A stretch of 64,000 bases of DNA from Clostridia bacterium (lineage in GTDB: Bacteria; Bacillota; Clostridia; Christensenellales; UBA1242). Shown in pieces: positions 51,115 through 55,614 of the stretch. The position numbers were made by a program, and so were the translations under genes. Below the pieces are notes generated by a model. The model was not told where the DNA came from and did no database searches. It was given only the letters and a program-made list of their open reading frames with translations. Location of the stretch: the NCBI GenBank assembly GCA_036654655.1, contig JAVVRP010000002.1, positions 51,841 to 115,840 of the forward strand, in the 5' to 3' direction. Within the stretch, counting starts at the first letter, position 1. The number at the start of each line of letters is the position of its first letter.

Positions 51115-54100
51115 ATGGATTATATTTCTTTACTTGCACTTCCAATTACCGGCGGAAACATTACACTAATAATGGTTCTGCTTTTGGTTGTTGCAATTAT
51201 AACAGGTTTTTTGTCTGGACTTTGGAAAGGGTTCAAAAAAACGGGTATTCGTTTTGCTTTTTTTATAACAGCCATAATTTTATCAGGAATTTTAACTCCT
51301 GTATTTTCTAGCCTTGCAATGCAAATAAAAATTTCGGGGCAATCTTTAAATAATTATTTTTTAAATATGTTAATTCAACTTTCTCCGCAAGTAGGAACAC
51401 TTTTATCTGGGAGTTCAACCCTTTCTTCGCTTGTGGAACAACTTCCGGTACTTTTAATGAATGCTGTAATGTTCATTTTATCAACACTAATATTAAGTTT
51501 TATTTTTTGGATTGGCTATCTTATAACAATGGGTATAATCAAACGAAAAAAGATTCATGAAAACATTACATTAAAAGATGGGTCTGCGGTTGTTGTGGAA
51601 CAAAATGTATTAAAGCCAAAAAAAAGGCGTTTACTTGGTGCACTTGTGGGGACTGTTCAAAGTGTGTTGTTTTTATTTGTTTTTTTAATACCAATTTCGG
51701 GATTGGTTAGCACGGTTTTATCACTATCAACGCCAACCGAAACAGTTGTGTCAGGTGGTGAAAAAACTGGCACTGGTTTAAATATAAAATATAATAATGC
51801 TGTCTTAGTTGCACAACCATCAAGCGCATTGCCTGCATCAACGGCAGAAATGATAAATAGCATTGTTCCTGCCGACGTAATGGAACTGTTTAAATCTTAT
51901 AACAATTCTATTACTGCAAAATTATTTAATGTTTTTGGGTTAACAAATGCAACATTTGACACTATTGCAACAACAAAGATTGAAGGACAAAAAATTTGCT
52001 TACGAACAGAACTTATTGCTTTTGGAAAGGCATATGATAGCGTTGCCCCAATAATTTTGAAAATTTCGGGCATAACGGGAGTGTCTTTTGTTGACATGGA
52101 TTTTGTTGCAATTCAAAATCTTGTTAAAGAACTTTTTTCTGGCAGTGGAATAATTAAAATTGTTTTGCCCGACCTTATGGAGTATGGGATATCTTATTTA
52201 AACACAAATTGGGCAACAATATATACAGGGAAGTATGCAACAGAACTTGGCAAAATTGTTTCCGACCTTGCAACAAAAATTTCAAAAGATAGTACTTTTT
52301 TGTTAAATATTAGCAAAGATACAACAAGTTTGATAGACAGTTTGGCTGCCGTTCAAAAATCGCAAGTTTTGGATGCCATTAATAACACTCAGGGCACTGT
52401 GATTGAAAAAGCAAACAGAATTTTAGAAAAACTTTCAAAATATCCAAACACCAGCGTAATTGATTATCAACCTGTGCGTGATATTATGCAGGGGATAACT
52501 TCTGCCGGAATTTTTAAAACAATATTGGTGGACGCTGTTAACATTGCTCTTCCCAATATTGTAGAGCCCGCTTTACAAACGTTTTTAAAACAAGAAACCC
52601 CGTTAAAACTTGGACAAATTTCTGCGGACAAAATTGCATGGGGAACAATTAACACAAATATTGCAAAAATAGCAAAATGTTTAAATGAATCACTAAAAGA
52701 AATTACTCCAACGGCGTATGACGCAATTAGCAAAGATTTTTTAAATATTGTAAATTATGATTATATCAAAATAGTAAACAACGCTTTTGTTAGTTTTGAT
52801 ACCATAAAAAATGGCACAATATTAAAATCTTTTGTAAACAATGGTGCGTTTTATGATGTTTTTGGGGAATTAGTAAACGCATTTTCAAAAACCACATATG
52901 GTTCTTATTTTGATTTAAACAAAATAAATAGTTTTAATTTTGTTGACAAAGCGCCACTTGTTGTGGTTTTTTTGGATTGTTTGCAACAGTATAATAAATT
53001 TGTGGATAATGATGTTAAAACCGTCCCAAATTGGGAGGCAGTTAAAAATAATGTTATTGCAATTTTTAATGATGATGCAATAATTTCAGGAATTAAGCCA
53101 TATGTGATTCAAATGATTGAGGACAAAATAAACACTTTAACAAGTTCGCTTTCTGCAACGCTTGCACCTGTAAAAACGGCGATAACCGAATTATTTGCCA
53201 AAATTAAAACAGAAGGATTGTACACCGAAACCTCGTTACTTTCTAAAATTGTACCTGATTTAAAAGTGCTTTTGCAAATAGCGGTACAAGTTTTGCCAGA
53301 AGATAGCAGTTTGTTAAATTTTGAAGGCATTAAAACTCAATTAACAAAACCAGTGCAGGGTAATTTGCAAACAAAAGCATATGAAAATATTATAGACACT
53401 ATTTTTGAAAACCAAATATTGGGCAATTTAATAATTTCTCTTGTTAATTCAAACAAATCTGTTATTGCCGACCAACTAAAAAGCAAAGTGACAACTTCAA
53501 ATCCCGTAGAAATTTCACCAGTATTTTCAGAACTTTCCACAAAGTTAACTGCCGAAAATTTAACCACAACAGGAAAACAAATTGCAACTGGTGTTAAATC
53601 TATTGCAAAACTTGCGTTAGAAAGCATGCAAAAAAATGTTAATCCACTGGACAACATAGAAATAACTTTGGGAGGAGTTAAAACAGTTATTGATTTTAAC
53701 ATTAAAGATTTTTTAAGCCAGTTAGGTGTAACCTTGCAAACACTTTTAACAAATCCTATTTTTGCAAAAGCAGGGGGAGGCTCTATATTTGATGAAATTA
53801 TAACTGCACTTAACGCATCAAAGTATGGCGACTTTATTCAAATTGATAATTACAAATCGGAAAATTTTTTTACAACAGAATTTACAAGGTTGTCTAACAT
53901 TATATCAGGCTTAAAAACAAGTGGAACCTTGAATGACGTGCTTAATTTTGAAACAGCCAATTTAAAACTGTTGCTTTCAAAGTTTTCAACAAAAGGTGAT
54001 GGAAATGATGTGGACTTAATTTTTGGTGAACTTATAAGCAGTAAACTTATGAACAAGTTGTTTATGCAAATTGTTGATAAAGTAAATGACACAATAAGCA

Positions 54101-55614
54101 CATCGCTTGCGCTAACAACCAAAATTGAAACCCCAAAAATAACTTATGAAAATTTAACAAAACTTGAACATAAGGCAGAAATCTTAAATGTTTTTAAAAC
54201 TGCAATAGAACTATTAAAAAAAGGTGATTTAAGTTTTGACATAAAAACTTTTGACGCAGAAAAATCTGGTGAATTTTTAAATTCTTTGCAGGCAAACTCA
54301 TCTGCTGGTGATTTGTTTGAGCCAACATTTATTTCAATTAAAAATTATTTAAAAACATCTCAACCAAAACTAGAAAAACTTTTAAATTTTTACAATTCAA
54401 ATGTAAGCCCAAATTGGATGAAACTTGCCACATTTGCAAAAGATTTTTTAAATTTTGATTTAACAAAAAATAATTTGTCAATAGAAGTTGGAAGCCTTGG
54501 ATATAATTTTGCAAAATTATTGCAAGAAATGAAATCAAATGATGCAACTTATTACGACTTAGGGATAATAATGGTTGAAATTATAAATGAATTTAAAGGG
54601 GAAATAACCGTTGCAAATGGTTTGGAAAAACTGGCAACTTTAAAAAATCTTGGAGTATTTAAAGACAAAAACCAAGATAATGGAAAGAAAATTGATGATG
54701 TATTTACATTGTTAGAATCTCTTGCAGAAAAGCCAGACTTGTTAAAACTTATAGGTCTTGATTACACGTCTATTGCAAATTCTTCAAAAGAAATTGGACC
54801 TGCAAAACAAATTATAGACAACAAAACTTCAACAGCGGACCAAAAATTAGGCGCGCTTATTACCGTTGCAAATGCCTTTGCAAAATCACCAGACATAATA
54901 ACGCTACTTAAAAGTTTTAAAGTTTTTGATCAAAACTTTGCCAGCATAACAGATTTTGCGGGAGTCAGAGATTGTGTAACAGTAATAAAAACACAAAAGG
55001 CAATTATAGATAACGCAACTTCAACACAAACACAAAAATTAGAAGCACTTATTGCAATTGCAGATGAGTTTTCAAAGCCAACATCAACAGAAACAAAAAA
55101 CTTGCTTACAACATATGGTGCAATGGGTGATTTTGCCAGCATAACAGATTTTGCGGGAGTCAGAGATTGTGTAACAGTAATAAAAACACAAAAGGCAATT
55201 ATAGATAACGCAACTTCAACACAAACACAAAAATTAGAAGCACTTATTGCAATTGCAGATGAGTTTTCAAAGCCAACATCAACAGAAACAAAAAACTTGC
55301 TTACAACATATGGTGCAATGGGTGATTTTGCCAGCATAACAGATTTTGCGGGAGTCAGAGATTGTGTAACAGCAATAAAAACACAAAAGGCAATTATAGA
55401 TAACGCAACTTCAACACAAACACAAAAATTAGAAGCGGTTGATTTAATTATTACTTCACTTATTAGTTCAACAGATACGTTAACTTTATTTGGAAATTGT
55501 AATGTAAAATTTGAAGTTGCAAATGATTTAAAAGAACCAATTAAAGCAAAAATTAACGAGAAAACAGCAACTGAGGATGTAAAACAAAAACTTAAAGTGT
55601 TGTTTAACGTTTAA
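51115..55614 (+). CDS. Large membrane protein: N-terminal CvpA-like 4-TM domain fused to a ~1,300-aa helical repeat-containing region
   Basis: I chose ATG 51115, which is preceded by GGAGG (51106-51110); the track starts at 51085. The N-terminus ITLIMVLLLVVAIITGFLSGLWKGFKKTGIRFAFFITAIILSGILTP resembles CvpA (colicin V production) family TM1-loop-TM2, and two further TM segments follow. The rest is Lys/Asn/Leu/Thr-rich and probably helical, with 65-aa repeats near the C-terminus. Confidence 0.7.
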   Translation: MDYISLLALPITGGNITLIMVLLLVVAIITGFLSGLWKGFKKTGIRFAFFITAIILSGILTPVFSSLAMQIKISGQSLNNYFLNMLIQLSPQVGTLLSGSSTLSSLVEQLPVLLMNAVMFILSTLILSFIFWIGYLITMGIIKRKKIHENITLKDGSAVVVEQNVLKPKKRRLLGALVGTVQSVLFLFVFLIPISGLVSTVLSLSTPTETVVSGGEKTGTGLNIKYNNAVLVAQPSSALPASTAEMINSIVPADVMELFKSYNNSITAKLFNVFGLTNATFDTIATTKIEGQKICLRTELIAFGKAYDSVAPIILKISGITGVSFVDMDFVAIQNLVKELFSGSGIIKIVLPDLMEYGISYLNTNWATIYTGKYATELGKIVSDLATKISKDSTFLLNISKDTTSLIDSLAAVQKSQVLDAINNTQGTVIEKANRILEKLSKYPNTSVIDYQPVRDIMQGITSAGIFKTILVDAVNIALPNIVEPALQTFLKQETPLKLGQISADKIAWGTINTNIAKIAKCLNESLKEITPTAYDAISKDFLNIVNYDYIKIVNNAFVSFDTIKNGTILKSFVNNGAFYDVFGELVNAFSKTTYGSYFDLNKINSFNFVDKAPLVVVFLDCLQQYNKFVDNDVKTVPNWEAVKNNVIAIFNDDAIISGIKPYVIQMIEDKINTLTSSLSATLAPVKTAITELFAKIKTEGLYTETSLLSKIVPDLKVLLQIAVQVLPEDSSLLNFEGIKTQLTKPVQGNLQTKAYENIIDTIFENQILGNLIISLVNSNKSVIADQLKSKVTTSNPVEISPVFSELSTKLTAENLTTTGKQIATGVKSIAKLALESMQKNVNPLDNIEITLGGVKTVIDFNIKDFLSQLGVTLQTLLTNPIFAKAGGGSIFDEIITALNASKYGDFIQIDNYKSENFFTTEFTRLSNIISGLKTSGTLNDVLNFETANLKLLLSKFSTKGDGNDVDLIFGELISSKLMNKLFMQIVDKVNDTISTSLALTTKIETPKITYENLTKLEHKAEILNVFKTAIELLKKGDLSFDIKTFDAEKSGEFLNSLQANSSAGDLFEPTFISIKNYLKTSQPKLEKLLNFYNSNVSPNWMKLATFAKDFLNFDLTKNNLSIEVGSLGYNFAKLLQEMKSNDATYYDLGIIMVEIINEFKGEITVANGLEKLATLKNLGVFKDKNQDNGKKIDDVFTLLESLAEKPDLLKLIGLDYTSIANSSKEIGPAKQIIDNKTSTADQKLGALITVANAFAKSPDIITLLKSFKVFDQNFASITDFAGVRDCVTVIKTQKAIIDNATSTQTQKLEALIAIADEFSKPTSTETKNLLTTYGAMGDFASITDFAGVRDCVTVIKTQKAIIDNATSTQTQKLEALIAIADEFSKPTSTETKNLLTTYGAMGDFASITDFAGVRDCVTAIKTQKAIIDNATSTQTQKLEAVDLIITSLISSTDTLTLFGNCNVKFEVANDLKEPIKAKINEKTATEDVKQKLKVLFNV
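54937..55436 (+). repeat. 195-bp in-frame tandem repeat, 2.56 copies (two identical copies plus a 110-bp partial with one substitution)
   Basis: Copies begin at 54937, 55132 and 55327. Copies 1 and 2 read identical by eye. Copy 3 differs at 55373 (T to C, Val to Ala) and diverges after 55436. The unit encodes FASITDFAGVRDCVTVIKTQKAIIDNATSTQTQKLEALIAIADEFSKPTSTETKNLLTTYGAMGD. A diverged ancestral copy lies at ~54760-54936. Confidence 0.92.

Follow-up and report, generated by a model that had tools for sequence, protein, structure and literature searches.

The question raised by this locus is whether a membrane domain of the CvpA type can be the true beginning of a very long protein and, if so, what such a protein would do. 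The gene concerned lies on the forward strand of a 64,000-nucleotide (nt) stretch of a Clostridia bacterium assembly (GCA_036654655.1, contig JAVVRP010000002.1, positions 51,841 to 115,840), referred to throughout as the window, and it encodes a protein of 1,499 amino acids (aa) upstream of rsmH. The original prediction, made from the letters of the window, described a CvpA-like domain with four transmembrane (TM) segments fused to a large helical domain. This description stands at the level of the protein family, while the window sequence itself has no match to the CvpA profile PF02674. The explanation that we prefer, with a probability of roughly 0.55 for architecture and function taken together, is that a CvpA-type four-helix domain would sit in the membrane with both of its K/R-rich loops in the cytoplasm, that the polypeptide would leave TM4 on the outer side, and that a flexible linker would there lead into a solenoid-like helical ectodomain of about 1,290 residues. 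The parts of the gene are as follows, with model confidence given as the predicted local distance difference test score (pLDDT) of AlphaFold2.

51115..55614, forward strand: long CvpA gene, 1,499 aa, stop codon included (open reading frame listing and translation)
51106..51112, forward strand: Shine-Dalgarno-like GGAGGAG just 5' of the ATG at 51115 (read from the sequence)
51115..51744, forward strand: divergent CvpA-type 4-TM domain, aa 1-210 (hydropathy, AlphaFold2, conservation and PF02674 matches in relatives)
51745..51834, forward strand: S/T/G-rich low-complexity linker after TM4, about aa 211-240, predicted disordered (pLDDT 40-47)
51835..53034, forward strand: membrane-proximal helical module, aa 241-640, conserved (pLDDT mostly 80-93)
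53035..54744, forward strand: variable distal helical region, aa 641-1210, with low column occupancy and identity (pLDDT 35-90)
54745..54936, forward strand: diverged older copy of the 65-aa repeat, aligned part about aa 1215-1257
54937..55436, forward strand: tandem array of a 195-nt (65-aa) unit, 2.6 copies, 99% identical (Tandem Repeats Finder)
55437..55611, forward strand: helical C-terminal tail without repeats (translation and AlphaFold2 model)

A divergent CvpA-type membrane domain

Hydropathy analysis identified hydrophobic segments at about aa 13-38, 40-69, 101-144 and 172-205 (TM1 to TM4), in agreement with the N-terminal layout proposed in the original prediction (TM1, a WKGFKK loop, TM2 and two further TM segments). 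The WKGFKK sequence between TM1 and TM2 (aa 36-41) is predicted to be cytoplasmic, the TM2-TM3 loop (aa 70-100) is predicted to be external and to contain two short helices, and the K/R-rich TM3-TM4 loop (aa 145-171) is predicted to be cytoplasmic and to include a beta-hairpin. The TM helices were modelled by AlphaFold2 with pLDDT values of 85-94.

Profile searches with the window protein did not recover CvpA. PF02674 gave no match for the full protein (E<=0.01) or for aa 1-221 (E<=10), and an NCBIfam scan of the window protein likewise returned no CvpA match; the original prediction had named the lack of a PF02674 match as grounds for its own rejection, and, taken literally, this is what was found. 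The link to CvpA runs instead through homologues. One homologue, P0003, is 986 aa long and was matched to the window protein with an E-value of 8.6e-15 among 5.8 billion database sequences. On PF02674 this homologue reaches 31.1 bits, where the gathering score is 29.3 bits, and its alignment spans positions 4-138 of the 144 in the profile. When 50 family members were drawn from all levels of the ranking, 26 matched PF02674 (E<=0.01; best 2.3e-11), one of them above the gathering score, and no other Pfam family is common to the 50. At the level of sequence, the CvpA assignment is transitive via homologues and the window protein is not a demonstrated member of PF02674. Because its own match is missing and the homologue links are solid, the domain is filed as divergent CvpA-type.

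Two CvpA motifs were sought in the family, R-G-F-(basic) after TM1 and R-x-L-G-x3-G-x3-G entering TM4, and both are present. Their forms in the window are WKGFKK (aa 36-41) and RRLLGALVGTVQS (aa 171-183), the third Gly of the latter being replaced by Ser, and their E. coli counterparts in the hhalign alignment are IRGFVR and DRVLGVCFGALRG. This alignment of the family N-terminus with enterobacterial CvpA is collinear across all four TM segments; it pairs GL.RGlKK of the family with LIRGFVR of E. coli after TM1 and KK.RLLGGLVG.VQG with TDRVLGVCFGALRG at TM4, with an alignment score that is not significant. Near-invariant positions in the family are G31, G35, G39, P111, F120, K169, R172, G175, G179 and P193 (each 91-100%), with G31, G35, G39, R172, G175, G179 and P193 at 93-100%. 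Since these polar and glycine motifs are near-invariant and common with CvpA, the TM domain appears to be more than an anchor.

An intact gene in a large family

The gene lies in one long open reading frame (ORF) on the forward strand, 51085..55614, with in-frame ATGs at 51085 and 51115. The second ATG is preferred because it is preceded by GGAGGAG and because the homologues begin at the same Met, the point from which all of them align; the upstream ATG has no Shine-Dalgarno-like site. The coordinates 51115-55614 of the original prediction are consequently right.

A contig from an independent NCBI metagenome-assembled genome (MAG; GCA_036653055.1, 'Clostridia bacterium', locus L007) is 99.98% identical to the window over 10 kb, and its ORF is equally uninterrupted, with exactly one 195-nt repeat unit fewer, which implies 1.6 repeat copies and results in 1,434 aa. 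Near-identical repeats are an assembly hazard and their copy number is unequal between the two assemblies, as might be expected if two genes had been joined by a chimeric contig or by a frameshift, the latter being the example of a fusion artefact given in the original prediction. Such an assembly or annotation artefact is hardly credible given the uninterrupted ORF in both assemblies, a TM-plus-ectodomain layout common to hundreds of homologues from many samples, and conservation that continues across the junction into aa 251-300. We have rejected it on the grounds of the twice intact ORF and the hundreds of homologues built alike. The exact repeat copy number is the sole uncertain part of the gene structure, and the repeat region calls for caution in short-read MAG assemblies. 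In L007, a single-base indel divides rsmH (7357-8257, equal to window 55666-56565) between two gene calls; this indel and the missing repeat are likely to be assembly or consensus errors or real micro-variation.

To delimit the family, an exhaustive hmmsearch with a profile of four members was run against 1.84 billion cluster representatives, of which 1,445 matched at E<=1e-3, 867 at E<=1e-10 and 332 at E<=1e-30. The best 150 of the 1,445, together with P0002, P0003 and the window protein, formed a checked set of 153 sequences. Lengths span 295-1,617 aa in the best 150, and the median of the 153 is 964 aa. Four TM segments occur within the first 260 aa in 152 of the 153, and 146 of the 153 have no later TM segment. 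Among the best 150, all but one split match cover the TM domain and about 200 residues beyond it (at least profile positions of about 10-400). The fusion is therefore conserved among relatives, with 1,445 representatives matched and the TM-plus-ectodomain layout present in nearly all of the checked set, and it defines a large unnamed family and not an oddity of one genome. Because the architecture recurs across this family, the fusion is genuine and widespread, neither an artefact nor a one-off.

Every member with a source name is annotated 'hypothetical protein'. Genome and metagenome scans were made with a 7-sequence family alignment; relatives occur in fermentation and other metagenomes and in MAGs that bear the labels Clostridia, Christensenella(les), Eubacteriales, Acholeplasmataceae and Candidatus Caccosoma, the sources including gut and digester MAGs. 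The family is thus one of uncultured bacteria, namely Bacillota (Clostridia, Christensenellales) and Acholeplasmataceae. A whole-protein homologue search listed 4 matches only, its word prefilter being swamped, and a search with the N-terminal 205 aa listed none, missing even the identical MAG protein, which marks a sensitivity limit and is not evidence. A literature search returned nothing relevant on long CvpA forms, the ectodomain or newer CvpA biology.

Predicted membrane topology

Mean numbers of basic (K+R) and acidic (D+E) residues were counted by region over 151 family members.

TM2-TM3 loop, about 34 aa: K+R 1.1, D+E 4.0
TM3-TM4 loop, about 20 aa: K+R 7.3, D+E 2.4
First 40 aa after TM4: K+R 1.7, D+E 7.0

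The basic RG.KK motif lies in the short TM1-TM2 loop. The positive-inside rule accordingly predicts a cytoplasmic position for loops 1 and 3 and an extracytoplasmic one for the large domain, in an N-out/C-out arrangement. The original prediction had left the side of the large domain to topology analysis, and the charge distribution over the 151 members points to the outside. E. coli CvpA has itself been predicted to cross the membrane four times with a periplasmic, length-variable C-terminus (bioRxiv 10.1101/2020.09.25.314492), and MarP has four N-terminal TM helices followed by a periplasmic protease domain (PMC4992679).

A sub-clade of proteins of 1,445-1,554 aa from Christensenellales-type MAGs (L018 4446-9110, L020 4284-8621 and L022 4125-8693) carries a K/E/P-rich insertion of about 40-200 aa in the predicted cytoplasmic loop 3, between TM3 and TM4. 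In some lineages, therefore, elaboration extends to the cytoplasmic side of the TM domain as well.

The linker and the predicted helical ectodomain

The region after the membrane domain comprises 1,284 aa (aa 216-1499), slightly under the more than 1,300 residues claimed in the original prediction, and its composition is as had been described, rich in L, I, T, K, A and N, with a charge balance near neutral. The linker is the least conserved block among the first 600 residues and is S/T/A/Q-rich in relatives. In many relatives it contains AQA/AxA-type motifs 15-25 residues past the residue aligned to window aa 193, and the linker of the window protein itself (window nt about 51740-51800) is without an AxA motif. 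The motifs may be a processing site or mere linker composition.

Conservation is highest in the TM domain, high at aa 251-300 and decays until about aa 600, beyond which the sequence is highly variable. The best-conserved block of the ectodomain (aa 251-300) reads YN.S..(G)K...G.D..FD......V.G.KI.LR.E and includes a beta-hairpin at aa 286-295; F281, D282, R297 and E299 are 83-90% conserved across the family, and D402 falls within the same range. Within the distal region a single conserved island, L..L..NA...G..F, lies at about aa 1055-1068. By phmmer, two relatives only match window aa 750-1000, and none of 151 relatives has detectable similarity to the window protein past aa 1000.

The C-terminal tandem repeats noted in the original prediction were confirmed. 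Copies of the 195-nt unit start at 54937, 55132 and 55327 (aa 1275, 1340 and 1405), and the diverged copy ahead of them aligns with a Smith-Waterman score of 84, compared with 27 +/- 5 (maximum 51) for shuffled sequences. The 65-aa repeat (window 55111-55239, aa 1333-1375) also gave a weak summed match to PHROG 24357 (E 4e-5), a family of unknown function, in which no single stretch is significant. PADLOC gave no match for the window protein, and, with one weak PHROGs match on the repeats as the sole sign of it, a phage or defence origin was rejected.

AlphaFold2 modelled aa 1-1200 (70-sequence alignment) as all-alpha, composed of short helices, with a mean pLDDT of 75.9 and a predicted template modelling score of 0.52. 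Confidence is high in the TM domain and at aa 240-640, the linker is disordered at aa 211-236, and small beta-hairpins occur in cytoplasmic loop 3 and at aa 286-295. For aa 1151-1499, modelled from the single sequence, the best model reached a pLDDT of 79.8 and the other four 41-66; in the best model each 65-aa repeat forms three helices. The large domain, described in the original prediction as probably alpha-helical, is accordingly all-helical in the models, and its form is solenoid-like and not a coiled coil: predicted helices of 4-44 residues do not fit a long coiled coil, which was therefore rejected. Foldseek searches against PDB (two models) and BFVD gave no match at E<=1e-3. The weak matches were to importins and to ARM/HEAT and TPR solenoids, the best having E-values of 0.06 (aa 1-1200) and 0.14 (aa 1151-1499) with TM-scores of 0.1-0.26. 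Searching the sequences of PDB with the profile of the family brought up nothing relevant, and the ectodomain has no Pfam, NCBIfam or PDB relative. No enzymatic domain was detected among the Pfam matches of the window protein, as had been claimed from its sequence, and neither Trypsin nor Trypsin_2 was found in the window protein or 50 relatives. The same Pfam scan of the window protein and 50 members revealed no known adhesin, cell-wall-binding or S-layer domain.

Genomic neighbourhood

The gene that follows is

55666..56565, forward strand: rsmH (16S ribosomal RNA m4C1402 methyltransferase), PF01795 1.2e-90, TIGR00006 298 bits

It is separated from the long CvpA gene by 51 nt with no terminator-like site between them. 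Upstream on the reverse strand lie genes for an alpha/beta hydrolase and a Mur ligase (best model murF), then ddl and a murI-like gene, so that the neighbours originally proposed are borne out, with rsmH directly downstream and the gene diverging from the hydrolase, the murF-like gene and ddl. The Mur ligase (window 48479-50107, reverse strand, 542 aa) scores 212 bits on the murF model, whose cut-off is 289 bits, and its matches begin at about residue 200, leaving an N-terminal extension of about 200 aa. Downstream of rsmH the window encodes a SigG-like sigma factor, a DUF512 radical S-adenosylmethionine (SAM) protein and der, and not ftsL or pbp. The sigma factor (window 56627-57394, forward strand) scores 348 bits on the NCBIfam SigG model (cut-off 372) and belongs to the SigF/SigG subfamily, which suggests an endospore-forming lineage and an unusual juxtaposition of rsmH and sigG.

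A directly downstream rsmH, with gaps of about 0-150 nt, is found in 8 of the 25 loci in which adjacency could be judged (the window, L005, L008, L010, L012, L014, L015 and L025). It is not adjacent in L001, L011, L013, L017-L022 and L026, nor in six JGI metagenome loci with a visible downstream gene (L028-L030 and L033-L035). In a neighbour-joining tree the rsmH-linked loci fall in the broad clade of the window. Their upstream neighbours differ, being the divergent hydrolase in the window, YqeY with a metallophosphoesterase in L008 and L014, a metallophosphoesterase alone in the shorter L015 locus, a radical-SAM gene in L012 and a UvrD helicase in L025, and RsmH is only 43-50% identical between linked loci. 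The pairing with rsmH has thus persisted through considerable divergence and through rearrangement of its surroundings, as an operon would, and this gene order suggests that the long CvpA gene is probably co-transcribed with rsmH in the clade of the window.

The usual gene upstream of rsmH encodes MraZ, a cytoplasmic DNA-binding protein of about 150 aa. A tblastn search with E. coli MraZ (E<=1) detected no MraZ-like sequence in the window or in the related loci retrieved at that stage, and the window protein has no Pfam match to a DNA-binding family and no similarity to MraZ. The original prediction had put the gene at the mraZ position and in division territory; it does lie upstream of rsmH, but the correspondence is positional only, is found in one clade and is not followed by ftsL or pbp after rsmH. 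Occupying the place where mraZ usually sits is no evidence for a division function.

Elsewhere in the window, two giant ORFs on the forward strand (6-9806 and 9913-19569; 3,266 and 3,218 aa) have no Pfam match and are about 23% identical to each other over about 800 aa; the second begins with a lipoprotein-type signal, MKKCLVTILAFMIMLTGLIFSAC, and both are probably giant surface proteins. They are followed on the same strand by ORFs of 1,239 and 1,177 aa (19794-23513 and 23560-27093), putatively rpoB and rpoC by size, order and N-terminal sequence. Two adjacent transfer RNA genes lie on the reverse strand at 33249-33406 (Rfam RF00005, 66 bits each).

Possible function and competing explanations

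In the explanation that we favour, the functional core would consist of the conserved TM motifs and the membrane-proximal module (aa about 241-640). The proximal module and loop 2 may act as the working unit, likely as a binding platform for envelope partners by analogy with MarP, whose TM domain of the same type presents a protease to the envelope, and the core as a whole would be a CvpA-like envelope-homeostasis module with a built-in extracytoplasmic scaffold for partner binding. The distal part would be surface exposed and would evolve rapidly through divergence and through the gain and loss of repeats. We consider the architecture and the family assignment very probable, and we offer the functional reading tentatively, as something less probable than its opposite.

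Several observations weigh against this explanation. The window protein itself has no PF02674 match and falls below the gathering score of 29.3 bits. The hhalign comparison with 89 enterobacterial CvpA sequences was not significant (P 0.013-0.044), and that of the family N-terminus with E. coli CvpA alone gave a probability of 1.7%; we ascribe the lack of significance to an enterobacterial profile that is too narrow, the E. coli-seeded CvpA homologue search having listed only relatives at least 79% identical. The family residue aligned with D97 of E. coli CvpA (the D of DRVLG) is K, R, H or Y, that is, not D. A near-invariant Asp has been reported among CvpA homologues (bioRxiv 10.1101/2020.09.25.314492), and D97 may be this residue. 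The topology is a prediction from the positive-inside rule. Only one clade shows adjacency to rsmH, which may reflect a gene order passed on by descent and not a functional connection. CvpA itself has no known biochemical function, so that 'envelope homeostasis' says little about what the protein does. Finally, the family also occurs in Acholeplasmataceae MAGs, and these organisms are presumably wall-less, which speaks against a strictly peptidoglycan-linked role.

Apart from the artefact dismissed above, other explanations place the function or the location of the helical domain differently. The protein could be a surface coat or adhesin-type protein in which the 4-TM domain is a mere anchor and the exposed ectodomain acts in contact with a host, phage or other cells. 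The lineage-specific distal two thirds, the near-identical tandem repeats whose copy number varies between assemblies, the two other giant orphan proteins of the same window, one with a lipoprotein-type signal, and the gut and digester MAGs from which relatives derive would all suit such a role. Against it stand the TM domain, which is conserved best of all parts and has near-invariant Gly, Arg and Pro positions in common with CvpA, the family-wide conservation of the membrane-proximal module, and the Pfam scans of the window protein and 50 members, which brought up no adhesin, cell-wall-binding or S-layer domain of a known kind; we regard this explanation as unlikely, though it merits serious consideration.

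The disordered linker and the AQA/AxA-type motifs that many members carry in it, together with the reported autocleavage of the MarP protease domain (PMC4992679), raise the idea of a processed precursor, in which the K/R loop and TM4 would serve as an internal signal and cleavage in the linker would release a CvpA-like protein and a secreted or wall-associated helical protein. The motifs lie about 15-25 residues past Pro193, which we judge far from the membrane for signal peptidase I, and the linker of the window protein has none, so this course of events appears improbable. The helical domain could also be on the inside, as a cytoplasmic scaffold tethering partners related to division or to the ribosome, hence the association with rsmH. 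Intracellular scaffolding is the classical role of alpha-solenoids, every weak fold match is to an intracellular protein, and the neighbours are rsmH and peptidoglycan-precursor genes. This arrangement would nevertheless turn both basic loops outward, against the positive-inside rule in 151 members, it would place the acidic region after TM4 inside, and it disagrees with the outside position given to the C-termini of CvpA and MarP; it is accordingly very improbable. A bolder extension of the preferred explanation, and quite an improbable one, is that the CvpA domain is a general membrane 'socket' through which events at an extracytoplasmic domain are coupled to the membrane or the cytoplasm. 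The long form would then be a hitherto unrecognised scaffold for the envelope or for division in uncultured Clostridia, expressed together with rsmH where a dcw remnant begins, in organisms that have lost mraZ from that place.

If this bolder extension is true, no ligand- or partner-binding element would have been identifiable on a CvpA domain before the proximal module (FD...G.KI.LR.E), and what CvpA does biochemically, a long-standing question, could be approached through it. The 4-TM module of at least several hundred sequence clusters carries a conserved, predicted extracytoplasmic domain of about 1,000 aa, and both this unannotated family and its conserved proximal module could enter domain databases.

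Comparison with known systems

The resemblance to MraZ is one of position (upstream of rsmH on the same strand), with no sequence similarity. With alpha-solenoids such as HEAT/ARM proteins and importins the ectodomain shares a predicted stack of short helices and 65-aa units of three helices; there is no significant match and no sequence similarity, and the present domain is bacterial and predicted to be extracytoplasmic.

The phenotype associated with CvpA concerns colicin V production and bile-salt resistance. CvpA of E. coli (b2313, 162 aa) and the present family have in common the four-helix span, the R/K-G-F-K/R loop, the R-x-L-G-x3-G-x3-G motif leading into TM4 and a predicted N-out/C-out arrangement with the C-terminus outside. 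The window protein is 9 times longer, carrying a helical domain of about 1,290 aa where CvpA has a tail of about 40 aa, and its loops 2 and 3 are longer. CvpA proteins are small, about 160-200 aa with a short variable tail, whereas the window protein has 1,499 aa and the family a median of 964. The genomic context is rsmH here and purF/dedD for CvpA. In enteric pathogens CvpA is important for colonising the gut and for resisting bile, and it is conserved across bacterial phyla (bioRxiv 10.1101/2020.09.25.314492).

Beside CvpA, the closest known protein is MarP (Rv3671c) of Mycobacterium tuberculosis, which likewise combines a PF02674-type TM domain, a linker and an extracytoplasmic C-terminal domain. 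The MarP sequence as used here scores 51.7 bits on PF02674 and also matches Trypsin_2. The ectodomain of the present family differs in being no protease, in being all-helical and about 5 times larger, and in belonging to a different host phylum. A long helical region placed outside the membrane by such a domain would add weight to the view that CvpA-type proteins act chiefly through their outward-facing C-terminus.

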